DNA from: Heptranchias perlo | Lineage: Eukaryota | Direction: 5' to 3' | DNA length: 64,000 nucleotides | Assembly (NCBI RefSeq): GCF_035084215.1 | Contig: NC_090340.1 | Coordinates: 15,252,001 to 15,316,000 of the forward strand | In this document: positions 4,789-58,210 of the stretch, one piece after another | How positions within the stretch are numbered: the first letter of the stretch is position 1 | Layout of the letters: every line of letters begins with the position of its first letter | The notes under the pieces: generated by a model | Database searches by the model: none | Told to the model about the DNA's origin: nothing | Seen by the model: only the letters and a program-made list of their open reading frames with translations | Translations under genes and position numbers: made by a program

Positions 4789-4831
4789 ATGTTGATGAGT
4801 TTCGTTTTTCTCCCAGAGATCATTTACACAG
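4789..4831 (+). pseudogene. Leader exon of upstream IgSF pseudogene (MLMSFVFLPEIIYT)
   Basis: Homologous to leader 8857-8911 (ctcagaATG...atttacacag|gtacc), 12 nt shorter, phase-1 GT donor. Confidence 0.75.
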
Positions 4832-4999
4832 GTACCTACAATTCTATAACCCAGCTGCCTCGATAAACAAAAACATGTGAAATGGTTTCCGCTGAATCAT
4901 CATGAAATTCAAATCTCACCCAATTTTGCTTATTTCTTTTTTTCATCCCCACGACGCATCTAATAAAATTAACCAAACTTTGAATCTATTGCCTGACAA

Positions 5000-5084
5000 C
5001 CGCTTCTAATCTTTCGATCAGTCACTTCTTGGACATGCAATTACATTCAGAGGGACACACATCACCTTCTACTGCATATTCCAC
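5000..5084 (+). pseudogene. 5' fragment of a decayed V exon (psiV-a)
   Basis: Reads ...FRGTHITFYCIF. 22 nt (5061-5082) are identical to 9150-9171. The upstream intron end is homologous to that of the intact V, and the acceptor reads AA. Confidence 0.7.
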
Positions 5085-5215
5085 TAAACATAAATTCAGT
5101 GAAATTTAGTCAATCTTCGCGATTCTTCTTCACCTCTTTCATTTGTAGGTAGAAGTGTGTTCCGAAGTGTCTGGTTCCGCGTCCAATACAATTAACCACG
5201 TATATTTTCCAACAT

Positions 5216-5449
5216 CTGCGGCGCATACTTCGATCAGAGTGGCTCAAATTCCCGAACATGTGATGGCATTAAGAGGGACAGACATCGTGTTCGACTGTGT
5301 AATCTCCCCCTCTCAGGACAACTCTCGAAAAGACGTGCGTTGGTGGAAACAGGTTGCGAATGGACGTGCAAAGTGGAACGGATAACAGAAAATGATTTGG
5401 TCTGAAAATTAAAGAAGGCGGTTTCTTTCAGTTGCTGAACGCGACTTTA
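5216..5449 (+). pseudogene. V exon pseudogene (psiV-b), truncated by CR1
   Basis: AAHTSIRVAQIPEHVMALRGTDIVFDC...VRWWKQ...FGLKIKEGGFFQLLNAT aligns with the intact V. Acceptor AG>AT, a frameshift, CGA>TGA, and a CR1 tail at about 5453. Confidence 0.85.
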
Positions 5450-5452
5450 AGA

Positions 5453-7940
5453 GAAGAGCATAAGAAATTGGAGCAGGAGTAGGCTATAAGGTCCCTCGAG
5501 CCTGCTCCGCCATTCAATAAGATCATGGCTGATATTCCACCTCAATTCGACTTTCCCACCCTATCCCCATATCTCTTGATTCCCTTGGTGTACAAATATC
5601 CATCGATCTCGGCCTTAAATATACTCAACGACATAGCATCCACAGCCGTCTGGGATAGAGAATTCCAGAGATTCACAAACTTCTGAGTGAAGAAATTTCT
5701 CCTCATTTCGGTACTAAATGGACGACCCCTTATCTTGACACTATGATATCTAGTTCCAGACTCTCCAGCCAGGGGAGACAGCCTCTCAGCATCCATCCTG
5801 TCAAGCCCTCTAAGAATTTTAGACGTTTCAATGAGATCACCTCTCATTCTTCTCAACTCCGGAGAAGAAAGGCACATTCGACTCAATCTCTCCTCTTGGA
5901 CAACCCTTTTGTCCTAGGAATCAATCTAATGATCCTTTTTTGCACGGCCTCTAAGCAAGGTATATCCTGACGTAAGGAAACCAAAACTGTACACAATACT
6001 CCAAATGTGGAAACACTGGAGCCCGATATAATTGCAAGGCTTCCTTACTCTTATACACTTACGCACTTCTAATAAAGGTTAACATAATGTTTGTCTTCCT
6101 AATTGCTTGCTGAACCTGTACGTTAACTTTCTGTGATTCATGTTTCAGGACAGACAAATTCCTTTACTACCAACATTTCTTGGTCTGTTTTTCAATTCTT
6201 CCTACCAAAGTGGATAATTTCACATTTATCGACGTTATTCTCCATCCGCCACCTTCTCGCCCATCCACTTAACCTGTTTACATCCATTGCAGTCTATTTA
6301 AATCCTCCTCGCAGTTTACTTTCCCACCTCGTTTTGTATCATCAGCAAACTTGCATACATTACACTCGGTCCCCTCATCTAAGTCATTGAAATATATTGT
6401 AAACAACTGAGGCCCAAGCACTGATCGTTGTGGCACCCCACTAGGTACAACCTGCCAACCTGAAAATTATCCGTTTATTCCTACTCTCTGATTTCTTTCC
6501 GTTAGCCAATCCTCAATCCATGCTATTCTGTTGCTCCCAATCTCATGATCCCTAATCTTGTGGTAACAACCTGTTGAGTGGCACCTTATCAAATTCCTTT
6601 TGGAAATCCAAATTACTACATCCACTGATTCCCCCTTATCTACCCTGCTCGTCACGTTCGCAAAAAAATTCTAATAAATTTGTCAAACACGATTTATTTT
6701 TCATAAAACCGTGTTGACTCTGCCTAATCATATTATCATTTTCTAAGCGCCCTGTGACTAGGTCTTTAATAATAGGTTCCAGTATTTTCCCCACCACTGA
6801 TATCAGGCTAACTGGCCTATAGCTCCCTGATTTCTCTCTCTCTCCTTTCATGAAAAGCGGGGTTACATTTGCCACCTTCCAATCCACGGGGACCATTCCG
6901 CCATAGGGAAATCTGGAAGATGAAAACCAATGTATCGACTATCTCAGTAGTCACCTGTTTTAAAACCCTATGACGTAGGCCATCAGGTGCAGGGGATTTG
7001 TTGGCTTTTCGTCCCAATAATTTATCCAATACCTTTTCTTTACTAATCTTAATTATTTTGTGTTCATTACTCTCATTAGACCCTTGGTTTTCCACTATTT
7101 CCGGTATGTTTTTACTGTCTTCCATTGTGAAGACAGATGCAAAATATTTGTTTAATGTCTCTGCCATTTCCTTGTGCCCCATCACAATTTCTCCTGTCTC
7201 TGCCTCTAAGGGATCCAAGTTTTGTTAACCTCTTCCTTTTTACATACTTGTAGAATCTCTTACAATTTCTTTTTATATTTCTTGCTAGTTTACTCTTATA
7301 TTCAATTTTCTCCCTCTTTATCAATTCCTTGGTCACCCTTTACTGATTTCTAAAACCCTCCCAATCCTCAGGCTTACTCGTATTTCTGGCAACATTGTGA
7401 GCCTCTTCTTTTAATCTAATACTATCCTTAAATTTTCTAGTTAGCCACCGTTGTATCACTTTTCCCATGGGATTTTTATTTCTTAAGGGAATAAGAACAT
7501 AAGAACATAAGAAATAGGAGCAGGAGTAGGCCAAACGGCCCCTCGAGCCTGCTCCACCATTCAATAAGATCATGGCTGATCTGATCCTAACCTCAAATTT
7601 AAATTCATGTCCAATTTCCTGCCCGCTCCCCGTAACCCCTAATGTATACTCATTAAGAATTATGAATTATTTATTTAAATGTTCGCCATTGCTTGTCTAC
7701 CATCATATCTTTTAATGTAATGTCCCAATCTAACTCAGTCAACTTACCTCTCATACCTACGTAAAAGGCTTTGTTTTAATTTAAGACCCTAGTTTCGGAC
7801 TTGACTACATCATTCTCGAACTCTATATAAAGTTCTATCATATTATGACCACTCTCCCCCCGAGGATCCTTAACCTTGTGATTACTAATTAAGCTTGTCT
7901 TATTACACAATGCTAGATCTAAAATAGCCTGTGCCCTTAT
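5453..7940 (-). mobile_element. CR1 LINE, degenerate, with a nested short CR1 3' piece at about 7490-7643
   Basis: RT fragments (DWKVANVTPLF, SQHGFMK, CLTNLLEFF) and CATAAGAA-type tails. Confidence 0.9.
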
Positions 7941-8856: not shown

Positions 8857-8911
8857 ATGTCGGCGAGTATGGTGTTTCTGTGCTTGACGCTCCGGAGGAT
8901 TATTTACACAG
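8857..8911 (+). CDS. IgSF VJ-C1 receptor, exon 1 (leader MSASMVFLCLTLRRIIYT)
   Basis: ATG at 8857, 55 nt, phase-1 donor ACAG|gtacc, in frame with the V exon. Confidence 0.75.
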
Positions 8912-9081
8912 GTACCTCTTTATTCACAAGAAAAGCTACTTTAATTTATAAAATGATTCCGAAGTAGTTTCCACATAAACGAAGTGAACGTAATTCCTCT
9001 CTCTAGATTCATGTTTTCTCTCTTCCATCTCCATGTCGTCTCCAATAAAACTAATCCGTACTTGACTATATTTTCTGACAG

Positions 9082-9402
9082 CTGCGGACCACAGTTCGTT
9101 CAGAGTGACACAAACGCCCAAACAGGCGACTGTATCCATAGGGGGAAATATCACCTTCTACTGCATATTCCCCATCTCTCAAACCCATTCTTGGGTAAGA
9201 GTGTATTGGTCGAAACAGGGTGAGGATGAATACCTGCACAGAAGCGGCGATAAGAGAAAACGATTTGGTCTGGAAGGTAAAGCAAGCGGTTTCTTTCAGT
9301 TACGGAACGCGACTTTCCAAGACTCTGGAGTCTATCACTGCGCAGTGATCCGACAGGGAACAGTTGGAGAAGATGGAAACGGATCACATCTGATTGTGCA
9401 TG
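9082..9402 (+). CDS. IgSF VJ-C1 receptor, exon 2: V-set domain with germline-joined J-like strand
   Basis: ag acceptor and gtaagt donor, 321 nt, phase 1-1. B-strand Cys (FYC), C-strand Trp (VYW), DSGVYHC, J-like GNGSHLIV. Confidence 0.92.
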
Positions 9403-10460
9403 GTAAGTGTGAAACACCGGAGAGCGGGAGACTGTCGTAAACATATCAAACATAACATACGGGATTTTTTTGTGATTTGCTTTATTGTACAGTTTCTGAC
9501 AGTAAAACATTTCTATGAACACTTTTTGCGAGAAAGTTAAGTTCGTGTTCTCTGTATAGAACTGCCAATTAGATAGCAAAATATAACCCTCCACACGCAG
9601 GGTACTGTAAAATGTGTCAATGTTAAGCAATTGGACTGTAACTCCAAATACATTTATACACCAGACGTTTGATAGCGGAAGTTCGGAAAAAAATTCAAGC
9701 TGAGTGAAAATGGTTTATATTAATCCGCTTTCCCCACTATATACACGGTTGTTAGTGCATTTTGTCTGCTCTGTCTGCCCCCACCGCTGTCTCTGGGGTT
9801 TAACATTCTTGAAATTAATTCTCACATGAAGATTGGCTCGTTAGCGTCACGGATTTGAAAGCCAGCTAACTGTTGATCAACGGATTCACTCAACAAAGTG
9901 GAGCTCGGAATTCACAACGTTGTCACCTCACCAACCTCCAATAAATAAAACAATACTCAGGAACTGTATTGCTGAAATCTCCTGAGGTTCAACCGAATAT
10001 AGTTTATTTCACAAATCCTCATGCTTCGGCAATGAGATCTGTCCAATACCGAGTAATGCCCTGGTTTTATCATCGGCAATGTGTAGATTACTCGATTACT
10101 CGTCACTGTCTAACTGAGTAAAAGAAAATGGAGGACTGGGCGTGCCAACTTTCCCCCAGGGTTTATTTCTTTAATTCTTTGGACTATGAAACGTGACATT
10201 GATTAGCGATTGTTGCGAAGTGTCTGCGGTGTAACTCAAAGTTTTGGACTCGGTGGTGCATATAAAATTGAACAGATGCCGGTGACGATGAATGATATGG
10301 TTGAGGTCTGTGTTGACAATGTGCCAAATATAAAAAGGACAGGAGGCTGTGCTTTGGAATGGTGCTGTTATAATAAAATGGACGGAAGGAAATAAGAATC
10401 ATATTTAATTTCTCCCCATGGTGCCCAGTAACTCGATTTTGTTCATTCTCTGTTCCGCAG

Positions 10461-10772
10461 CTCCCCCAACTCCACTGAAGATTGCCTCGAGGACAGCTGA
10501 GGGGAATTCATCTGCGTCTCTGACTCTTGTGTGTGAAACGGCAAAGTTTTTTCCGGAGAATTTCACCCTCGCTTGGTATAAAAACGGCGTTGTAATTGCA
10601 ACAGGAATACATACGATTAAACGGCAGAACACTGAGGGGCTGTATGAAGTTTCCAGCTCTTTGGAAGAGACGCAGCCGGTCCCGAGCGGCGCAAATTATA
10701 CCTGTTTGGTATCTCACATCTCCCTCCACACTCCAGCGATTGTCACCTATACCGTTACAAAATCTAACCAAC
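10461..10772 (+). CDS. IgSF VJ-C1 receptor, exon 3: C1-set domain
   Basis: ccgcag acceptor and gtacga donor, 312 nt, phase 1-1. LTLVCETAKFFPENFTLAWYKNG...GLYEVSSSL...YTCLVSHISL carries C1-set hallmarks. Confidence 0.92.
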
Positions 10773-11045
10773 GTACGAGGCCAACAGTCCAAAAAGGATA
10801 GTTAAAATCGCAAACAGATATATCGTAGAATGTGTACATATTGATAATCAAGAAGGTAGTTAATGGAAACACATGGGGTTAATATCAACGAAAACATGAC
10901 ATTCTGATTTTATTGTATAATATAATTGAACCCGATGTGTTGTAATACGGAGTTATATCGTCCGGAGCCAAATATTCCCAGTCAAACCTTATTTGCCTTC
11001 AACTTCCTCTATTTGAGGGATAACAAATATAAACAAATATAAAAA

Positions 11046-12230
11046 GGTGAGGTGAGAGTGACTGCCCTTGACATCAAGGCAGCATTTGACCGAGTATGGC
11101 ACCAGGGAGCCCCAGTATAATTGAAGTCAATGGGAATCAGGGGGAAAACTCTCCAGTGGCTGGAGTCATACCTAGCACAAAGGAAGATGGTAGTGGTTGT
11201 TGGAGGCCAATCATGTCAGCCCCAGGACATTGCTGCAGGAGTTCCTCAGGGCAGTGTCCTAGGCCCAACCATCTTCAGCTGCTTTATTAATGATCTTCCC
11301 TCCATCATAAGGTCAGATATGGGGATGTTTGCTGATGATTGGACAGTGTTCAGTTCCATTCGCAACCCCTCAAATAATGAAGCAGTCCATGCCCGCATGC
11401 AGCAAGACCTGGACAACTTCCAGGCTTGGACTGATACGTGGCAAGTAACATTAGTGCCAGACAAGTGCCAGGCAATAACCATCACGAACAACAGAGAGTC
11501 TAACCATCTCCCCTTGACATTCAATGGCATTACCATCGCCGAATCCCCCACCATCAACATCCTGGGGGTCACCATTGACCAGAAACCTAACTGGACCAGC
11601 CATATAAATACTGTGGTTACGACAGCAGGTCAGAGGCTGGGTATTCTGCAGCGAGTGACTCACCTCCTGACTCCCCAAAGCCTTTCCACCATCTACAAGG
11701 CACAAGTCAGGAGTGTGATGGAATACTCTCCACTTGCTTGGATGAGTGCAGCTCCAACAACACTCATGAAGCTCGATACCATCCAAGATAAAGCAGCCTG
11801 CTTGATTGGCACCCCATCCACCACCCTAAACATTCACTCCCTTCACCACCGGCGCACAGTGGCTGCAGTGTGTACCATCCACAGGATGCACTGCAGCAAC
11901 TCGCTAAGGCTTCTTCGACAGCACCTCCCAAACTCGCGATATCTACCACCAAGAAGGACAAGAGCAGCAGGCACATGGGAACAACACCACCTGCAAGTTC
12001 CCCTCCAAGTCACACACCATCCCGGCTTGGAAATATATCGCCGTTCCTTCATCGTCGCTGGATCAAAATCCTGGAACTCCCTAACAGCATTGTGGGAGAA
12101 CCGTCACCACATGGACTGCAGCGTTTCAAGACGGCGGCTCACCACCACCTTCTCAAGGGAAATTAGGGATGGGCAATAAACGCCGGCCTCGCCAGCGACG
12201 CCCACATCCCATGAACGAATAAAACAAAAC
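11046..12230 (+). mobile_element. CR1/Jockey-group LINE, 5'-truncated, in the C1-TM intron
   Basis: 352-aa RT ORF with [10 protein letters not shown] and FADD, plus an A-rich tail. Confidence 0.92.
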
Positions 12231-13128
12231 AGGAGTTTATCTTTTGCATCCCATTATATTTCTTTCCTGCTTATTATTGATACTTTTTCGGGGTTTTTTT
12301 TCTATGTTAAACTGCCGGCTTTCTCTGCATCAGGACAATTACCAGGAGCTGCAGTGGACGTGTTTGCTCTTTGGCTTCTTCCAATGCATTTCTCAATCCT
12401 GAAATTCCCCCTCCCTCTTCCGCCTACGTCGAGTGCAGAGTTCTGAACTTAAACCGCTGTCCAACTTCCACCCCACATCTCTCCATGCCACAGTGGGTTC
12501 GATTGCGACCTGTCTCATAAATCTCATGTAAACTGTACCCGCAATTTGGTTAGAGTGCAGCCGGTTCAACATATCATTTTATTAACAAATCTTAGCTTTG
12601 CCAGATAATAATTAATAAACCGTCGCCCGTTGATCTCTTTTCCTATTCAATGACATTTTTACTTCAATAAACACTGTGCGGATAATTGAATGAGGGTTAT
12701 TAACCAATTGCTGCAATCCAGAATTTTGTGGGGGCTACGAGTAAACCCGTGTGAACAAATTCCCCCCGATTTCGTCAAACTATATGTTAATGAATAAGAA
12801 TGGTCAAGGACATAAACAAGTCATTCGGTCCAGGGAAATTTATCCCCCTTGTATTCTAATTCTCCTAAAACATTGTTTTGAGATCCCTAAACGGTAGTCA
12901 CCTTCGCAGATTATTCCAGAACGTCTCATCCATTCGATGAAGAAGTTACTTGAAATATTATATCGAAAAAATTAACATTTTTTTATTTACACTTCCTTAT
13001 TGTCGTTCTATACAGCGGAGTTACTGAAAACATCAATAGTTTAAGCAATAAACTATCTTGCGGCCTCTTTTTAGCAAACGCCCGCCCTAACGTACAACTC
13101 AATATATATGCTCCTATTATTCTTGCAG

Positions 13129-13242
13129 TTCGTGACGGTATGTCTCCTTACTACTCGGGTTTTAGAAATGCGATGGGCGGTGCGGCGTTTCTAGTGCTCC
13201 TGGTCATCATCTGGACGCACTGCCAATTGCAGGTGAATCAAG
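13129..13242 (+). CDS. IgSF VJ-C1 receptor, exon 4: transmembrane (LRDGMSPYYSGFRNAMGGAAFLVLLVIIWTHCQLQVNQ)
   Basis: ttgcag acceptor and gtaaga donor, 114 nt, phase 1-1, open in frame with C1, hydrophobic stretch. Confidence 0.82.
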
Positions 13243-13739: not shown

Positions 13740-13787
13740 CATGGATAAAAACTGGACCGAACGGTCATGAATGGCCGGTACGTTCAT
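13740..13787 (+). pseudogene. Dead copy of the cytoplasmic micro-exon
   Basis: Homologous to 37224-37267 (ggaccga...catgaa...g|gtacgttca) but the AG acceptor is lost and there is an internal deletion. Confidence 0.7.
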
Positions 13788-14452: not shown

Positions 14453-14466
14453 GAAGCAAAGACTGA
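14453..14466 (+). CDS. Proximal terminal exon with a degenerate tail; direct splice from TM gives GSKD-stop (271-aa protein)
   Basis: tag acceptor retained. Paralog of 37922-38068 with indels destroying the ITIM/ITSM. AATAAA at 15031 is conserved with 38734. Confidence 0.5.
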
Positions 14467-17400
14467 GATCGTTGATACGCTGCTTTCCGATCGAACAGAA
14501 CTCATCAAACTCCAAGACGTAAATGAAGAGGAATGTGTACAATCAGGCGGGGGTGGGAAGAGGATCAGACAGACACAGATCACCAGCGTAGCATCAATAA
14601 TCATGGGATAACGAAAAATATAAGGTTGGTTGACTCTGGTCGTTTATTGTATCTAAAGTTGTTTGTGTGTTATTCTGTTGATTGTTTTCGGCAGCAGTCC
14701 ACAAACTGGCAAAACCACCAATTAAAAATATTTCCAAACACGGGTTACAAACCAAAAAAGGGACCCACGCGACTCTAAGCTCCCAAAAAATGGGGAAATC
14801 CCAAAATAACAAATAAAACACAGATTAACATGTTCCAGTATTATATCATTCAAAGAAGGTGTAATTGTTTGTTATTGCTTAAATGTTTGAGGAATTTTCA
14901 TTGATTTACTTGTCCTAAAAATGAATTTTCTTTGCACCTTTTTGACCAAGCTGTTATGTTTTACAGATGAGAAATTTCTGCAATTATATACTAATTGTTT
15001 TTGTACCTAGTTATTATCATGCTTAACTTCAATAAAAATAGATGTTCTACGATTTCTCACTTATCAGCCATTAGCGATCCTTTTTCTTCGCGAGTAAAAC
15101 TGCAAAACCTGAATTTTGATCGATGTGTTGCCTTGCTGTATTGTGACTTCCAGTCCAGGCGATTCTGCCGATGTGGAAGGCAGGACGCTGCAGTCTATGG
15201 ACTCGTCCATAAATCCACTGAACCCAGATTGCAGTTGATGGAACATGAGGTACCTTTCTCTAATCTCTGAATGAATATCCATTTCGCCCAGACAATTCCA
15301 AGTCGCTCCCAAAGGAAATGCCCCGATTATTCAAAAGGACAGAGATTCTAGAGAGTTCTGAGACAAGCAACAAGAATGAATCCGGGACCTGGCAGTTAAG
15401 TTGTGAGAAAAACCCCACGGAGCCGATTGCATTTTTATTGGAGGTAATAACAAATTAAAAAGGATTCAGGCCTTTAAAATGTTGAAAGACGTGGTTGATG
15501 TAGATAAGCTCGCTGTATGACTTTACACGCAACAACAGGTTCTGAGTTTACAATCCTCAAAGAAGAGAATAGAATTACAACCATTTTTTACTGTGGCTGT
15601 TTGTTCAGCTGGGGGATAACTAGTAGTTTGAATGGTTAAACAATCATCTATTTGGAAGTAGATCACTTGAATTACAGGGTGAGAACTATCTGGTTACTGG
15701 AAGAATAGCAGCCCAACAGTTCCAGCGACTAAGCCTTCAACTCAGAACTTAAAGATAATACAAGACGTAGTTGCATTTTATTTGGCCTAACCGTCTTGGT
15801 TTGATGACTCTGTGCATTAACAAGCCTTTTAGAGTCCAAGAATGTTACAGCAGAGAAGCAGATCATTGGGCTTCTAATGTCTGAACTTTTTTCTCTCCAC
15901 ATGAACCAGTTAATTTGTCCTATTTTGCTTTTAGATTCCCACGATCTTTAATGTCCCTCTTTTCAAGCAACTAATTCCATTCTAAAAGAAATCCTGCACT
16001 GGGTTTGTGGCAGAGAACTTTATATCTCATTCTAACCAGCCTCCGTGTAGAGAGTATTTTACCTCTCCCTTTATTTTTTGAGATTATTTTAAATTTCTGG
16101 TCAATCGCTACAGTTTACTGACCACTGGAAACAATATAACATTATTACCTTATCATAACGCGTCTTACTGTTGAAAACCTCTTAAACATCTCAGCTCAGG
16201 TCAAAGATGTCCAAGCTTCTCAAATATTAACAACCCCACGTTCCTGGGAATTAAATCTGCCCCTTTTCAATTGTTTTTATATCTTTCCATAGTTTTAGGA
16301 AAACTTTTCCACCAGCTGAACATTATCTCCTTCCTTTTGTATTTTATGCCACCAAATACTAAACCAGGACATTCCCTTTGCATTTTTATTTTATAATAAA
16401 TTTCTGCTGCCATCATTCGTTAAGGTGCCTCTGCTGCTCTCCAATTAAAATCGTATAATTTAAGATGCATTTCCCATTCTTACCTCCAGAAATGTACTAT
16501 TTCACATTTCTCTCCATTCGCTATGGATCATCTAACTGCCCTTCGAACTAACTATCGATGTCGCCGGCAGAATTTCATAATCTGCATGAGAATGTCATTC
16601 CCTCCTCCCCATTGTTTGTCATCTGCAAATTTTAATGTTGCTCCCTCAATTCCCCAGTCAAGATAATTAATCTTTATAATAAATAAAAGCAGCCCAGCAG
16701 AGACCCCGGGGAACACCTCTCGGCACATCTTTCCACTCCGAGAAATATTCTTTTACCCTTATACTTTGTTTTCTGTCCTCCAATCATCTCTCAATCCCCA
16801 TAGCCACTTTGTACTTACTTTCACGTGCTTTTGTCGTATATGGTATCTTACCAAATGCGTTTTGAAAATCCATACAAACTACATCTGCGGCATTCTCTTT
16901 CTCTATTCTCTTTGTTATTTCTTCAATTCATTCTTTAAATCAAGCGGATTTGCTTTTTTCTAAATTCGTGATTGCTGGACTTGATTAGTTCAGGTTTCTG
17001 CAAGAATTTCGCAATTTTATGGCGAATGTCGCAGGCCCTGCAAATTGCAAGTAAATGTGCAACTGTTTACGTATCATTATGTTGCAGGTTGCTTCACATT
17101 GTTTTTTCTCATTTATAACAATTCGTTGGATTCGAGGAACATTATTGTTGTAGATTATTTTGAAAATTATTTAACCGAAAGTGACACATTTATGTGCAGT
17201 GGTACAAAATTAACATTTGGACATTCTATCAATCCTGTGTTCTGAGAAAAAGTAAGATATCAACTGAGGTGTTGACTAGTCTGGATTTAGCTACACGAAA
17301 TGTTTTGCTAAATATCGACACTAGCGAATCGTTTTCTCGAGCTAAAATGAAGCGCGTGTTATTTATTCGCCCCATCAGTGTAAACATCTTGAGAAGAATG

Positions 17401-19288: not shown

Positions 19289-22000
19289 TTACGTGTAGCG
19301 TGACATGAACCCAAGATCCCGGTTGAGGCCGTCCTCATGGGTGCGGAACTTGGCTATCAACTTCTGCTCGACGATTTTGCGTTGTCGTGTGTCTCGAAGG
19401 CCGCCTTGGAGAACGCTTACCCGAAGATCGGTGGCTGAATGTCCTTGACTGCTAAAGTGTTCCCCGACTGGGAGGGAACCCTCCTGTTTGGCGATTGTTG
19501 CGCGGTGTCCGTTCATCCGTTGTCGCAGCGTCTGCATGGTCTCGCCAATGTACCATGCTCCGGGGCATCCTTTCCTGCAACGTATGAGGTAAACAACGTT
19601 GGCCGAGTCACAGGAGTATGAACCATGTACCTGGTGGGTGGTGTCCTCTCGTGTGATGGTGGTATCCGTGTCGATGATCTGGCATGTCTTGCAGAGGTTG
19701 CCGTGGCAGGGTTGTGTGGTGTCGTGGACGCTGTTCTCCTGAAAACTGGGTAACTTGCTGCGAACGATGGTCTGTTTGAGGTTGGGTGGCTGTTTAAAGG
19801 CGAGCAGTGGAGGCGTGGGGATGGCCTTAGCGAGGTGTTCGTCGTCATCGATGACATGTTGAAGGCTGCGGAGAACATGGTGTAGTTTCTCTGCTCCAGG
19901 GAAGTACTGGACGACGAAGGGTACTCTGTTGGTTGCGTCCCGTGTTTGTCTTCTGAGGAGGTCTATGCGATTCTTCGCTGTGGCCCGTCGGAACTGTCGA
20001 TCGACAAGTCGAGCGTCATATCCCGTTCTTACGAGGGCGTCTTTCAGCGTCTGTAGGTGTCCATCGCGTTCCTCCTCGTCTGAGCAGATCCTGTGTATTC
20101 GTAGGGCCTGTCCATAGGGGATGGCCTCTTTGACGTGGTTGGGGTGGAAGCTGGAAAAGTGGAGCATCGTGAGGTTGTCCGTGGGCTTGCGGTAGAGTGA
20201 GGTGCTGAGGTGCCCGTCTTTGATGGAGATTTGTGTGTCCAAGAAAGAAACCGATTCTGAGGAGTAGTCCATGGTGAGTTTGATGGTGGGATGGAACTTG
20301 TTGATGTTATCGTGTAGTCTCTACAGTGATTCTTCGCCGTGGGTCCATAGGAAGAAAATGTCGTCGATGTATCTGGTGTATAGTGTTGGTTGGAGGTCCT
20401 GTGCAGTGAAGAAGTCGTGCTCGAACTTGTGCATGAAAATGTTGGCGTATTGGGGTGCGAATTTGGTCCCCATGGCTGTTCCGTGTGTTTGGGTAAAGAA
20501 CTGGTTATTGAAGGTGAAGACATTGTGATCCAGGATGAAGCGGATGAGTTGTAGGATGGCGTCTGGAGATTGGCTGTTGTTGGTGTTGAGTACTGAGGCT
20601 GTTGCAGCGATGCCGTCATCGTGGGGGATACTGGTGTATAGTGCCGAGACGTCCATCGTGGTGAGAAGTGTTCCTGGTTCAACTGGTCCGTGGGTGCTGA
20701 GTTTTTGTAGGAAGTCTGTAGTGTCGCGACAGAAGCTGGGGGTTCCCTGTACAATGGGTTTCAGGATGCCCTCGACGTATCCAGAGAGGTTCTCACACAG
20801 GGTTCCATTGCCTGATACGATAGGACGTCCGGGTGTGTTGGCTTTGTGTATCTTTGGGAGGCAGTAGAAGTCTCCCACGCGGGGAGTACGTGGGATGAGA
20901 GTGCGTAGGATGCTTTGAAGGTCTGGATCGAAGGTCTTGATCAGTTTGTTGAGCTGGTGGGTGTGTTCTTTGGTCGGATCTGCGGGTAACCGTCTGTAGT
21001 GTTCCTGGTTGTCCAGTTGTCGGTATGCTTCTTTGCAATAGTCCGTTCTGTTCTGTATGACAATGGCTCCTCCTTTGTCCGCTGGTTTGATGACGATGTT
21101 TCGGTTGGTCTTGAGAGCGTTGATGGCGTTGCGTTGTGCTCGGGTGACATTCTGGACTGTCTTCTGAGTGCGCCTGATGAATCTGGCATTGACGCATTTC
21201 CTGACAGCTTGGGCATACAAGTCAAGCTGAGGGTAGCGACCCTCCGGAGGAGTCCAGTTTGACTCTTTCCTCTTCGGTTGCTGTACCGTGGATCCCTCTG
21301 TCTGCTGTTCTGGATCATTGATTGTCTCATTGGGTTCACTGTTGAAATCTTGGGGTTTGTGGTAAAATTCCCGGAGCCTCATTCTCCTGATGAATTCCTC
21401 TGTGTCCGCCGCGAGACCGATGCGGTCCATTTTGGTGGTGGGGCAGAAATTGAGCCCTCGGCTGAGAACCTCGATTTCGTCTGGTTGAAGGGTGTGGTCG
21501 GACAAATTGATGATAGAGTTCCCTGTGGTTGTAACCGTGGTACCGGGGGAGGCTTGGTCGTTGCTGGTGGTGATGCCGAGTTTCTCAAGCTTCCTGCTCT
21601 TGGTTTTCATGTAGGCAGTGTAGTTCCGTTGCCTCGTCTGTTTGGCGGTATATCGTAGCTGGTCTGCTGTGTCCTGAGTACAGGTTGAGAGTATGGACTC
21701 TATCTTGGTTTCGAGGTTGTGGCGTCTGCTGTAGAGTTGGTGTATGAGATGGTTGCAGAGTGTGCGGGAGGTACGGCGGCAGAGTCTCTCAGCGTAATCC
21801 GAGTTGTATGTGGACTTGAGTGGGTTCTTGATCTGTAGTCCTTTCGGGATCTTGTCTGCTTTCTTGCAGCTCTGTAAAAACTTGATGTCTGTGTCGATAT
21901 GCGCAATCTTCATGGAGATCCTTAACACTGTGAGCCGGCAGTTTGTGGTGTCGATAGTAGCCATGATATGGAGATGCCGGTGATGGACTGGGGTGGACAA
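19289..22000 (-). CDS. Penelope RT + GIY-YIG endonuclease with one in-frame TAG at 20321-20323
   Basis: IKPADKG, GRPIVS, DVSALYTSI, GTAMG, RYIDD, then VVYLIRC...YIGET...RMNGHR...EDGLN. The two ORFs share one frame. Confidence 0.92.
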
Positions 22001-22050
22001 ATGTAAGGAATCTTACAACACCAGGTTATAGTCCAACAAATTTATTTTAA

Positions 22051-22091: not shown

Positions 22092-24089
22092 GAATGAAAA
22101 GGTTCTCAAATCGCATATCTTATACGATGTTGGGACAGCATCACACCAATCAAAAGGTGTCGTTGTTATTCAAACAGGCCAGTCACGGAGAACAGCACGT
22201 CCCAGTACACTCGATATACATTGTGTCTTTTACACAGGCAGGCAGAAAGAAACTTAAAATGGCAGAGAGAGAGAGAGAGAGAATTTTAAAAAACATATAA
22301 ATTTTTTCCCCCTTTTTGCTGGTGGGGTTACGTGTAGCGTGACATGAACCCAAGATCCCGGTTGAGGCCGTCCTCATGGGTGCGGAACTTGGCTATCAAC
22401 TTCTGCTCGACGATTTTGCGTTGTCGTGTGTCTCGAAGGCCGCCTTGGAGAACGCTTACCCGAAGATCGGTGGCTGAATGTCCTTGACTGCTAAAGTGTT
22501 CCCCGACTGGGAGGGAACCCTCCTGTTTGGCGATTGTTGCGCGGTGTCCGTTCATCCGTTGTCGCAGCGTCTGCATGGTCTCGCCAATGTACCATGCTCC
22601 GGGGCATCCTTTCCTGCAACGTATGAGGTAAACAACGTTGGCCGAGTCACAGGAGTATGAACCATGTACCTGGTGGGTACACAATAACATTTTCTGTGTT
22701 TTCAACAGATTCTGAGAGCATTTTCGGTTGGAAGCTTGCATCTCTCTGAGAAGCCCGAGTCTACAGTGTAAGGGCTTTCCAGAGATGTCAATCTGTCGGC
22801 TGACAAGGCAGGAGAGTACAATTCCGACAATGCACTGCTGTGACTGATTTTAACAGCCTGTGTAGAGAATTGCGAGCATGCACTTACAGCTTCTTCCTTT
22901 CTGAATCCAATGAACACGATCATTGTCAGAACATGCCATGACTTGTGATTCGCAAACACATCCTTTGTCTCTGTGCAGCAACGAAGGAGGCATTGCTGCG
23001 GAATGATGGAAAAAAAAGTTAAGAAGCATTGAATTTCCTCATCAAACACTTTAAAGAAAACAGCATTTTTTGCATGGAACATTAAAGCAATGTAAAACAG
23101 ATACTTTTGAAAACTTTCTAAAAGAGCTATATTCAACCGGTTAGTGATTTAGTTAACAAAATATATTACATGCCATTCCGTTCAATGGTCATGTGCACCT
23201 CTTTGACATCGTGTCATAGTAGGTACATCACAGAAGGAGGCCATTCGGCCCAACGTGACTGTGCCGACTCTTTGAGAGTGCGATCCAATTGGTCCCATTC
23301 CCTTGCTCTTTCCCGATTGCCCTACAAATATTTTCCCCTTCGAGTAATTACCAATTAATTTTTCAAAGTTACTATTGAATCCGCTTCCATCACTCTTTCA
23401 GGTTGTGCATTCCAGATCATTACAACTCGTTTCCTCGCCCATGGCTCTTTTGCTGATCATCTTAAATGGAAACTTAATTGCAGAGGTTACCTTCACCCTA
23501 ACAGTCTGCGTCCGAAATAGGTGTGACCAGTTCCTTCAGAGAAAGTGTCACAGAAACAAATTGCCCAATTTGGAACTCTCACTGAGAAACCATCGGATAG
23601 TTAGCATGGGGCTGAAAAAAATCATATTGGTACAATTGCCAGCGTTCTACTCAGGTTGGGGCTGAGATATACCCTTAGCACCATTCATGCCTTGATTCTG
23701 GATGGAGCTGACACCATAAAATGTCCCCTGTATAATCTGCAACGAAATTGCAAACCTATCCGTTGTAAACGGGTACGGAATTTTGTTATATATAGCACTT
23801 AGAGAACGACATAAGTCTATCAGGAAATAGTTTCATTCCCCAGCCCTCACACCCTTCGCCTCGATTAATGAGAATTCACCCCAAGAGATTTCAAAAAGGA
23901 GGAAAATGGAATTTGAAATTCAGTTGTACTAAAATCAGAAATATTCAAAATCAGATTACACTTCGGTTGTGCACTTTAGCTGTTCAGTAAAAGTAGACAC
24001 AGAAAAAATGTTGATTCAAATGAATCGCTTAGTGCCGTGCAGATATTTACAGTGGTGTCATATGTTAAAGAGCTCAACGCAAACTCCAA

Positions 24090-37104: not shown

Positions 37105-37542
37105 TCTGAAATTGAATGTTATGTTCGGCTTTGTACCGACTCTAGAAATTTCTTTGAAATCACTGAATGTAAACTGAATAACTGTGTCAATCTTTCAATA
37201 TCATTAAATTTCATTCGTTCCAGGTAAACAGGAACGTGTAATGGGACCGACCCGCCATGAAGAGCTGGTACGTTCATTCATTCATCCTCTGCAGAGGGTT
37301 CAAGTGCGAAGAAAGATTGCTATAATGGAGAGATATTATCACAATATTGCCAGAACAGTTTAAGTCTATTTACTAAAAGCATTTGCCCGGCCTTAGTGAA
37401 TCATTCAAATCGTAGTTAGAAAAGTATTTGGCAAAGTATTTAATGATATTGAAAAATTGACACAGTTATTCAGTTTCCATTCAGTGATTTCAAAGAAATT
37501 TCTAGAGTCGGTACAAAGCCGAACATAATGTTCAATTTCAGA
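37105..37542. repeat. 105-bp inverted repeat (37105-37209 / 37438-37542) enclosing the 44-nt exon
   Basis: Reverse-complement comparison shows 4 mismatches in 105 nt, with a 228-nt spacer. Confidence 0.95.
37224..37267 (+). CDS. Cytoplasmic micro-exon, 44 nt, phase 1 to 0 (GKQERVMGPTRHEEL)
   Basis: ttccag acceptor and gtacgt donor. It exactly bridges a phase-1 TM exon to the phase-0 ITIM exon. Confidence 0.75.
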
Positions 37543-37921
37543 ATTGGCGTTGCTGGCAAAAATGTTAGATAGCGGACAAGAAAACTGCCAGTTTCGTTTG
37601 AAATGTACCCAGTTAATAACTGTTTATGGAGTCATCCATTGTCTGTATTTGAAAAAAATATTTTATGTTCAAAGCTGCCGCTTATTTAAACATTTCTGTA
37701 ACAGTGTTGTAGAGTGAATCGTGACAGGTTTAAATATTAGTTATAGTGACCACAGCACTCATCAGCTTTAATATTCGTACTTATGCCAATATATTAATTA
37801 TGCTTTGTGCACCTGGTCTCGAGCCAAGCTCGTTTTGTTCAATGTTTCGTCAGCAGTACGTAAATTGGTGAAGGCAATGAACTAGCCACGTAACCAAATA
37901 TTTGCTTTCTGGCCCATGCAG

Positions 37922-38068
37922 GGAGCAGAGGCTGATATCGTGCATTATGCTGCATTAGATATCAGCAAAGACATGAAAACTCCAAGACGTAAAGATGAAG
38001 AGGAGAGGACCGTGTATGCTCAGGTAGGGTTGAATAACAGATCAGAGAAACATGGATCATTACTGTAA
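37922..38068 (+). CDS. Terminal cytoplasmic exon with ITIM (VHYAAL) and ITSM (TVYAQV)
   Basis: cag acceptor. GAEADIVHYAALDISKDMKTPRRKDEEERTVYAQVGLNNRSEKHGSLL*. AATAAA at 38734. Confidence 0.82.
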   Translation, partial: GAEADIVHYAALDISKDMKTPRRKDEEERTVYAQVGLNNRSEKHGSLL

Positions 38069-39904
38069 CACCAACATTCATGCGATAGTGGAATATTTAA
38101 GGTTGTGCTGACTTTGATCTTGTATTGTATCTAAAGCTATTTGTGTATTATTCTGATGACTGCTTTGAGCAGCAGTCCACAAAACTTGCAATACGTCCAA
38201 TCAACAATATTTCCAAACATAGGCTTTACAGAAATACAAGGGGCAGCCCGTGACAAGCTGACGTAGGCAGTTCTAGCAGTGACTGGCTCAGTGAAAATGG
38301 CGCAATGCAAAAATGACGAAAGAAGCACCGACTATGCCCAGCTACCAACACAAAAGCAAAGTCGAGTACCAGAGGCTGTTTACTCCGAAGCAAGAATCAA
38401 ATAGCGATAGAATTTTAGATGTAGAGGTCACTGTTTGGTGTCTACTGATCGCTTTCCGTTGCGGTATCAACTAAGCGCGTATGTATACCGTGTGAGACCG
38501 TACCTCCGAGAGGTAACGCATTCGAGTGTAATATTAGAGAATGCAGTCTCTGGTCTTTACTTGCTGTTCAATTGCTTCCTGAATTTTCATTTTGCTGCTT
38601 TTAAGAGAAAGCTAACTTTCCTGACATACTTCCATGTTAAATCTGTATTATCTAACAAAAGACAAACTTCTATTTCAATTACAATGATACGCTAATAGTC
38701 TTGCTGTGCCTAATTATCATCTTAGAAAAATTCAATAAAAACAGTTTGTATACGATAAATCAACGATTCGTGCGCCTTTTTTGGGAGTAAAACTGAAAAA
38801 CCTTTGTGTTAATTTATGTGTCGCGTTAACGCGTTCTGACTTGCTGTCCAGGTGACGCTCCTGATATGGAAAGCAGGAATTTCCAGAGTATGGAAACCTA
38901 CTGAACGTAGTTTCCAGTTGTTTTATGTCCTCCAAACATCTGTTTACCCACGTGGCCACGTAGAATCATATAATCTTACAGAACAGAAGGAGTCCATGCG
39001 TCTGTTGTGCCTGTGCCTGCTCTTTGAAAGAGCTATCCAATTAGTCTCAATCCCTGCACTTTCCCCAAAGCCCTGCAATGTTTTCCTTTTCAATTATATA
39101 TCCAATTCCGTTTTGAATGTTCCCATTGGACCTGCTTCAACCACTGTTGCCCTTACTTCCAAGATTCATTATCCTATGGTGTTACCTTGTCAATTTTTTT
39201 CAATATCCATGCAAAAACATCTGCTGCATTTCCTATATCTAGTCTCTCTGCTGTTTCTCCAAAGCATCCTAAACTGAAAGTCAAGCATGATCTGCGTTTT
39301 CGAAATCCGTGCTGACTTGCCTTGATGAGATCAGGTTTCTACAGGAAGACAGCAGTTTTATCCCGAATGACACAAGGCCTGGAAAATGCAAGGAAATATG
39401 CAACTGTTTACCTGCCGTCATGTTTCAGTTTACTTCACATTCGATGTTCTTATCTAATAACAATTCATTACTTCAAAATGGAGTCGAAGTGCTGCAGATT
39501 ATTTTGGTAATTAGTTAACCGAAAATGTATTACATCTATATACAGGAATCAAAAGGTCAATGTGGGGGCGTTCTATCAGTCCTGTATTCTGATAAAGTTT
39601 AAGCGATTAGCTGGGGATTTTACGGTTCTGGTGTTAGCTGCACCGATGTGTTGCTAAATATTGACACGGGCGAATCGCTTTTTCGAACGACGGAAATAAC
39701 ATGGTTCAGTCACTCAGCTCGAAGCACCAACACTTCTAATTCTAAATTTAACTCTGTTAATTGCAATATACTGAAAACGTATCTAGTGTCGAATAGCGGC
39801 AGTTATTGCTCATCGCATGGTTCAGTATAATTATAACAACACTTGATGTTCACATTCAATTAAGATTTTATTTCACATTTGATTTTTCATTGCAGCTTCC
39901 AGAA

Positions 39905-58099: not shown

Positions 58100-58210
58100 G
58101 TCAGGGAGGCGGAATCGAGCGCTTCCTTGTTCAGTTTTTCCTGGGTTTACTGGTAATTCTGGTGCTGACCGGTATTATTGTGGAACATGCAAAATCAACT
58201 TCCGTTAAAT
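58100..58210 (+). CDS. Orphan transmembrane exon of a paralogous receptor (GQGGGIERFLVQFFLGLLVILVLTGIIVEHAKSTSVK)
   Basis: Pyrimidine tract with tag acceptor, gtaagat donor, 111 nt, phase 1-1, open. Same II..H motif and donor spacing as 13129-13242. Confidence 0.7.

Follow-up and report, generated by a model that had tools for sequence, protein, structure and literature searches.

A germline-joined VJ–C1 gene in Heptranchias perlo with an inhibitory-type ectodomain and an arginine membrane half: a candidate activating member of a large cartilaginous-fish receptor family

Here we describe a receptor-like gene in a 64,000-nucleotide window of the Heptranchias perlo genome (G000; contig NC_090340.1, called C18 below, positions 15,252,001–15,316,000); gene coordinates are given in window numbering. 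The reading we favour, and hold to be fairly probable, is that of an intact, four-exon, non-rearranging VJ–C1 gene that joins an ectodomain of the type found in paralogs with immunoreceptor tyrosine-based inhibitory motifs (ITIMs) to a transmembrane (TM) half with an arginine. Its product would be a likely activating partner of inhibitory receptors, with a predicted adaptor of the CD3zeta/FcRgamma type.

Results

Structure of the gene

The gene lies on the forward strand. A split leader exon (8857..8911), 94% identical to the N terminus of protein P0003 and with a junction that is used in contigs from paralogs, is followed by a single exon for a compact VJ domain with 59 residues from Cys to Cys (9082..9402), 98.1% identical at the nucleotide level to the ITIM paralog L098. 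The C1-set exon (10461..10772) is 94% identical in nucleotides to L098 and L095. The TM exon (13129..13242), 90–92% identical to the paralogs L096 and L099 and 72% to L098, carries Arg242 (codon 13164–13166) where ITIM paralogs have Gly. All four exons have AG/GT ends and are in phase 1, and splicing them yields an open frame of 267 amino acids, in which Pfam detects a V-set domain (E 2.7e-11) and a C1-set domain (E 2.9e-12). The G strand, GNGSHLIV, is encoded within the V exon, and the only cysteines of the mature ectodomain are the four canonical Ig cysteines. In an AlphaFold model (mean predicted confidence, pLDDT, 89), the V domain forms a compact sandwich and has little C'/C''.

A heptamer/nonamer scan found no recombination signal sequence (RSS) between the F-strand Cys and the G strand of this exon, nor any RSS around 58/58 paralog V exons; as a positive control, the scan detected the 23-RSS behind a shark TCR-type V. 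A single degenerate heptamer/nonamer-like string, at ~9090–9118, falls in the 5' end of the V exon and is not near the V/J boundary. A first-pass annotation of the window had proposed four in-phase exons, a J-like GNGSHLIV inside the V exon and no RSS between V and J, all of which these results bear out. It ended at the TM exon; the layout stands, and what it left undescribed is the TM arginine, the decayed tail exons and the hybrid origin of the gene.

Hybrid origin

From sequence comparison, the gene is best read as an ectodomain half like that of an ITIM paralog and a membrane half like that of tail-less paralogs with an Arg TM, brought together by exon-block recombination. From the promoter to the end of intron 3 (~13,080), it is 89–98% identical to the ITIM-bearing L098 (C1, 94.2%; intron 3, 91%) and 70–82% to L096, and its intron 3 is 74–80% identical to those of L096 and L099. 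From ~13,092, by contrast, the TM exon and 3' flank are 90–96% identical to L096/L099 and 72–76% to L098. The diagnostic bases change from the ITIM-paralog type (5') to the Arg-paralog type (3') within a recombination breakpoint at 13080..13092 (+), just before the TM exon. At the protein level, the V domain differs from that of the inhibitory paralog at 1 of 106 residues.

A mis-join in the assembly is argued against because neither half matches any fetched copy exactly and intron 3 has its own insertion, a repeat of the long interspersed nuclear element (LINE) type at 11045..12228 (+) that is missing from the matching site of L098. The L098-type gene lies ~31 kb upstream of the L099-type gene, its neighbour in the array; a copy of this L098/L099-type unit of the tandem array may therefore have undergone unequal crossing-over or a deletion, either of which would explain the join. 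The same TM cassette stands behind a different, deleted intron 3 in L104 and L106, where the sequence looks like that of a separate joining event.

Arginine TM and tyrosine tail across the family

We took 80 ten-kilobase stretches over family genes, skipping most near-identical duplicates, and located TM exons by hidden Markov model (HMM), a de novo finder having missed many exons. Of the 80 stretches, 60 contained a TM exon; leaving out the duplicate L125 and adding the window gene gave a set of 60 genes. The window TM reads GF-R-NAMGGAAFLVLLVIIW and that of ITIM paralogs AL-G-CAMGGLAFLVLLIVIG. Arg labels were given by eye, with the alignment column verified for 12/18, and a tyrosine tail was counted when an HMM match in the fetched DNA or a tail match within 20 kb was present, some of them with stops. 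So defined, a recognisable tyrosine-motif tail was present in 0/18 Arg-TM genes versus 30/42 others (Fisher p = 2e-7, a value that overstates the split because 3 to 5 changes suffice on the TM tree). The exceptions are 12 non-Arg genes with no visible tail, several short-tailed database proteins that lack Arg, and L144, which has a Lys-bearing TM and a tail match 10 kb away. The Arg occupies a single alignment column in 12 genomic TMs (the window gene included) and in 7 shark or ray database proteins, and in three of the four sister Arg genes the coding sequence ends in the first tail exon or directly after it.

In these sequences, we regard the contrast between the V and TM trees as a stronger point than the count of tails. 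On the V tree (52 rows) the Arg label changes 15 times, against a shuffled mean of 14.5, whereas on the TM-region tree (59 rows, without L103 and L125) it changes 5 times, against 15.6 when shuffled, with 0/500 shuffles as low. The label is thus scattered on one tree and clustered on the other, which argues that V heads of many subfamilies each occur on both cassettes. A catshark pair has the same arrangement: P0229 (Gly, ITIM VTYAAV) and P0026 (Arg, short tail) are identical at 206/210 ectodomain residues and at 23/37 residues of the TM exon. The features of paired receptors found here are near-identical ectodomains on opposing halves, a basic TM in tail-less members and ITIMs in others.

Tail remnants

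Behind the TM exon, on the same strand, lie a remnant of the first cytoplasmic exon (13744..13777), whose acceptor AG was lost in a 12-nucleotide deletion; a decayed first-ITIM exon (14453..14546), which in phase from the TM exon would give GSKD-stop; and a truncated remnant of the last exon (14745..15036) with an AATAAA at the position of the paralogs' poly(A) signal. Some 24 kb downstream is a better-kept orphan cassette encoding an ITIM tail, which belongs to a decayed neighbouring gene (37224..38404, +; pieces at 37224–37267, 37922–38023 and ~38232–38404). No V, C1 or TM goes with it; its sequence matches that of L097 and L100 at their 3' end, and its long frame meets a TAG at 38264–38266, at an ITIM tyrosine. 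We considered this cassette as the tail of the window gene and rejected it, as a decayed homologous tail immediately follows the TM exon and the match of the distal cassette is to another unit; it is probably outside the transcript.

A 105-bp inverted duplication (96%; 37105–37209 and 37438–37542) flanks the distal first tail exon. An orphan TM and tail remnant on the reverse strand (3289–2199), also present in L100, is interrupted by a stop at the ITIM tyrosine codon that corresponds to the stop at 38,264. Other family pieces in the window are a leader exon with a broken V remnant (4789–5455, +) and an orphan TM exon of the 'IIVDH' class at ~58100–58203 (+), with no V or C1 nearby.

A putative activating receptor

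The Arg lies at the N-terminal edge of the TM, 16 residues before its cytoplasmic end. In the accessible portion of PMC1440944, the TM Arg of FcRgamma-associated receptors is placed in the N-terminal segment and the Lys of DAP12 partners nearer the centre. A CD3zeta-like TM exon with its Asp is present on C11, and FcRgamma was not found in sharks, as far as the available text of PMC4016189 goes. From these three points we infer that the product would be an activating receptor signalling through a zeta-type dimer. It may be a surface monomer on myeloid or natural killer (NK)-like cells that pairs, through the common V domain and the same ligand, with L098-type inhibitory receptors; its signal would be opposite to that of the inhibitory paralog and could counter pathogens that exploit the inhibitory receptor.

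Several observations weigh against this reading. The TM after the Arg is short and rich in Gly and Ala, and with no FcRgamma found in sharks in the text just cited, the adaptor would have to be CD3zeta-like. Because the acceptor of the first tail exon is lost, the 3' end of the transcript is uncertain: the transcript could read through, end at the GSKD-stop or be spliced over 24 kb to the orphan tail, in which case the product would gain one ITIM. The V exon of L098 has a GC donor (as does that of L125) and the NCBI models of both genes omit this exon, so that L098, the closest inhibitory partner, may splice poorly. Contigs from three runs of one sample, which we guessed to be RNA (no matching run is on record as RNA), join 8911 to 9082 and 9402 to 10461 at the predicted splice sites, with mismatch counts that fit paralogs, not the window copy. 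At 85%, neither the TM exon nor the decayed tail was covered by any contig, which is uninformative about expression. Across the family, many copies are broken (intact exons were recovered from 58/70 fetched V matches and 60/76 C1 matches), close V exons have a dN/dS of 0.64 with no excess of amino-acid changes, and the Arg and tail counts are not independent.

The main rival is that the gene is a young hybrid pseudogene, neutral and produced incidentally as the array turns over, with four exons that are still free of decay; we judge this unlikely, while giving it more weight than any other alternative to our reading of the gene. It would account for the lack of any contig assignable to the window copy, the missing exon-5 acceptor, the remnants on both sides of the gene and the frequency of broken copies in the cluster. 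Yet all four exons and their splice sites are intact despite a drift of 2–10% of both halves from their closest copies, and the swap recurs across the V tree and in the catshark.

A large family in cartilaginous fish

In a genome search, the window V query had 95 matches, of which 93 lie on C18 (57 at 2.7–6.0 Mb, 35 at 14.5–15.65 Mb and 1 at 19.0 Mb); the count includes halves of one broken exon and near-identical duplicates, and corresponds to ~90 V loci on C18. No family pieces were found in the flanks at 6.00–6.04 Mb. The 10-kb stretches of L098 and L125 (14.68 and 14.98 Mb) are 99.8% identical and belong to a block repeated ~300 kb apart, and the 3.5–4.9 Mb region has a similar repeat at an 800-kb offset; these repeats reflect either recent duplication or duplication in the assembly.

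Homologs occur in Callorhinchus, Heterodontus, Mustelus, Scyliorhinus, Stegostoma, Chiloscyllium and rays, and 59/60 matches in a word-limited profile search were chondrichthyan, the remaining one being a weak mollusc Ig protein. The proposal of an expanded cartilaginous-fish family is therefore supported by the ~90 loci on C18 and by homologs in sharks, rays and chimaera. NCBI names the homologs automatically as SIRP-like, tapasin-related or NCR3LG1-like, among others. Full-length members have the order leader–V–C1–TM, most with tail motifs such as VHYAAL, LTYATL or TDYAEL. The distance from the F-strand Cys to the exon end is 21 residues in 49/57 V exons, and the J-type motif is of the GxG type in 49/58, with a preceding F/W in 1/58; the window gene has D-G-N-G. 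In a tree of a small sample with long outgroup branches, the family V clade spans holocephalan to rays with support of 95/95, and three lungfish SIRP-type V domains fall outside it.

Relation to SIRPs and antigen receptors

The fold assigns the V domain to no family, because VIA-align ties NCAM, basigin, VNAR, TCR V, CD79b and NKp30 at Z 13–14 (NKp30: Z 13.2, rmsd 2.3, 100 aligned); in Foldseek, VNAR and PD-L1 rank first. SIRP was not listed among the top V-domain fold matches, which excludes nothing. Profile searches of PDB and of 1.84 billion proteins were dominated by multi-Ig giants and left relatives unranked; five short multi-V proteins were followed up.

The family might be a chondrichthyan SIRP branch that has diverged past motif recognition on another chromosome, with the window gene as its SIRP-beta equivalent, a view we consider improbable. 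As in SIRP alpha and beta, a germline single-exon VJ-type domain and a C1-set domain occur with ITIM/ITSM tails (ITSM, immunoreceptor tyrosine-based switch motif) and with tail-less activating members in one cluster; some automatic names point the same way, and SIRP-alpha clusters are the top ESM Atlas feature matches (0.96). SIRP ectodomains have the order V–C1–C1, their V domains have the motifs GP[IV]xW and CxKF and a Cys spacing of ~66, and their genes are linked to NSFL1C. In the window gene and full-length homologs, however, a single C1 exon precedes the TM, neither motif occurs in any of 58 V exons, the V is shorter (median Cys spacing 59 versus 66) and the ~90 loci lie on C18, whereas NSFL1C is on C22, with no V or C1 match in the 100 kb fetched around it. 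The activating residue differs too: an N-terminal Arg in this family, a central Lys in DAP12 partners. A lungfish protein, P0204, which matches SIRP-alpha in PDB, has GPVxW, CVKF and a Cys spacing of 66, which suggests that lungfish has a SIRP-type V; the family clade stands apart from such domains, and a strict search with a lungfish SIRP-type query found nothing on C18. P0204 itself has six tandem SIRP-type V domains and is auto-named 'protein turtle-like'. A CD47 family search gave no match anywhere, controls included. The first-pass description of the gene as SIRP-like thus holds for its way of working, with ITIM and activating members, and not for membership. The accessible part of PMC9652883 calls the origin of SIRPs unknown.

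That annotation had also pointed to ancestors of the antigen receptors before RAG. The two-domain VJ–C1 layout is indeed the one drawn for the precursor in the portions of PMC12227049 (Fig. 2 legend) and PMC10751288 available, UrIg2 is the best C1 match in PDB and the window V model resembles VNAR. The layout by itself does not show descent from the precursor, and we find it very improbable that the family is a direct relic of the RAG-invaded VJ–C1 gene and, like UrIg, a sister of Ig/TCR. The scores in PDB add up over repeated domains, the fold matches are tied, and F/W-GxG occurs in only 1/58 V exons. The case for UrIg rests on linkage to MHC and Ig/TCR, as set out in the accessible sections of the same two papers. 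By contrast, the proposed synteny to MHC paralogons gains no support: the MHC I, PBX and A2M/complement markers tested are all on contigs other than C18, with three PBX loci found and MHC I matches on small contigs that the assembly does not assign to a chromosome. A search for the MHC II beta family gave no match anywhere. C18 instead carries a FOXL1/FOXF1-type cluster, in which the FOXL1-type gene is named by NCBI and the partner is presumably FOXF1, with its human counterpart, we assume, at 16q24. The match of layout therefore stands, and a special tie to the ancestor gains no support. A germline-joined Ig light chain or TCR gene is largely refuted. It would fit V and J in one exon followed by C1, and Fab light chains lead the two-domain fold search (Foldseek, Fab chains only). 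Against this, the distance from the F-strand Cys to the exon end is fixed, the family lacks RSSs, so V and J are not RSS-split, some members have ITIM tails, and the clade reaches from holocephalan to ray.

Other sequences

Among the proteins fetched, the highest per-domain scores outside the chondrichthyans (58 bits) came from turtle tandem-VJ proteins, whose V domains group as sister to the family with support of only 83/79, so that a link between the two is a lead from sequence. P0098, P0124 and P0160 include Arg-TM and tyrosine-tail forms and are auto-misnamed as NCAM2, pIgR, FcRL5 or titin-like. Elsewhere in the shark genome, in each of L206 (C12, 29.0 Mb) and L188 (C18, 37.0 Mb) several C1-set-like exons stand in tandem, with no obvious Ig identity. 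L220 (C27, 44.9 Mb) and L221 (C47, 3.4 Mb) encode further VJ domains, each in a single exon and lacking an RSS; an FGNG J motif marks one of them, and an APPPN loop, which we take to be a CD28-family-like motif, the other. In the window, long reverse-transcriptase and GIY-YIG-like frames at 19289–22012 (−) and 22328–22849 (−) presumably represent, by their motifs, a Penelope-type retroelement, and LINE fragments are numerous elsewhere.

Discussion

Taken singly, neither paired receptors nor germline VJ exons nor hybrid genes are new. Searches of the open literature showed no description of a paired VJ–C1 family of this size in cartilaginous fish, and subscription papers may contain one. A family of ~90 copies is likely to be a main innate receptor complex of sharks, in which KIR/LILR-type receptors were not found, within the available text of PMC4016189. 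More tentatively, it is possible that C18 holds a chondrichthyan receptor complex older than the chimaera–shark split, whose ~90 germline VJ–C1 genes swap compact, VNAR-sized heads between ITIM and Arg/zeta cassettes. Such a complex would correspond in sharks to that of KIR/LILR, would be assembled from domains of antigen-receptor type, and would have a surviving tetrapod branch in the turtle tandem-VJ receptors. The family offers concrete candidates for self/non-self sensing by shark NK or myeloid cells, and the window gene and L098 form a natural experiment, in which almost identical V domains stand on opposing signalling halves. The family further enlarges the set of germline VJ–C1 genes to be placed by any account of antigen-receptor origins.

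Among known systems, NKp30 (NCR3) couples through its TM Arg to zeta/FcRgamma and has a single V directly before the TM. The window gene shares with it a single-exon VJ ending in GxG-S/T-x-L-x-V and the TM Arg; unlike NKp30, the family has an additional C1 and inhibitory siblings, and no MHC linkage was seen, with MHC I matches on small contigs and none on C18. The turtle proteins P0098 and P0160 have the same Arg versus Gly in the TM column, with a tyrosine tail on the Gly form, and differ in having four to six V domains and no C1. UrIg and UrIg2 share the shark non-rearranging VJ exon, split leader and C1 domains; they have 3 (UrIg) and 9–11 (UrIg2) C domains, form disulfide-linked dimers and show MHC or Ig/TCR linkage, whereas the window gene has one C1 and only canonical Ig cysteines, and the portion of PMC12227049 available describes no ITIM/Arg pairing for UrIg. 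NITRs of ray-finned fish are likewise clustered VJ-exon receptors with inhibitory and activating forms, but their second domain is I-type (accessible part of bioRxiv 2021.06.11.448072), whereas that of the window gene is C1-set. A further parallel is with mammalian paired receptors: in NKG2A/C, PIR and KLRI, ligand-binding domains are homogenised, so that opposing genes have ligand-binding exons in common and distinct signalling exons (PMC3210942, in the sections available). In the shark family, by contrast, the binding unit is a VJ–C1, and the swap extends across a much larger array, in cartilaginous fish.

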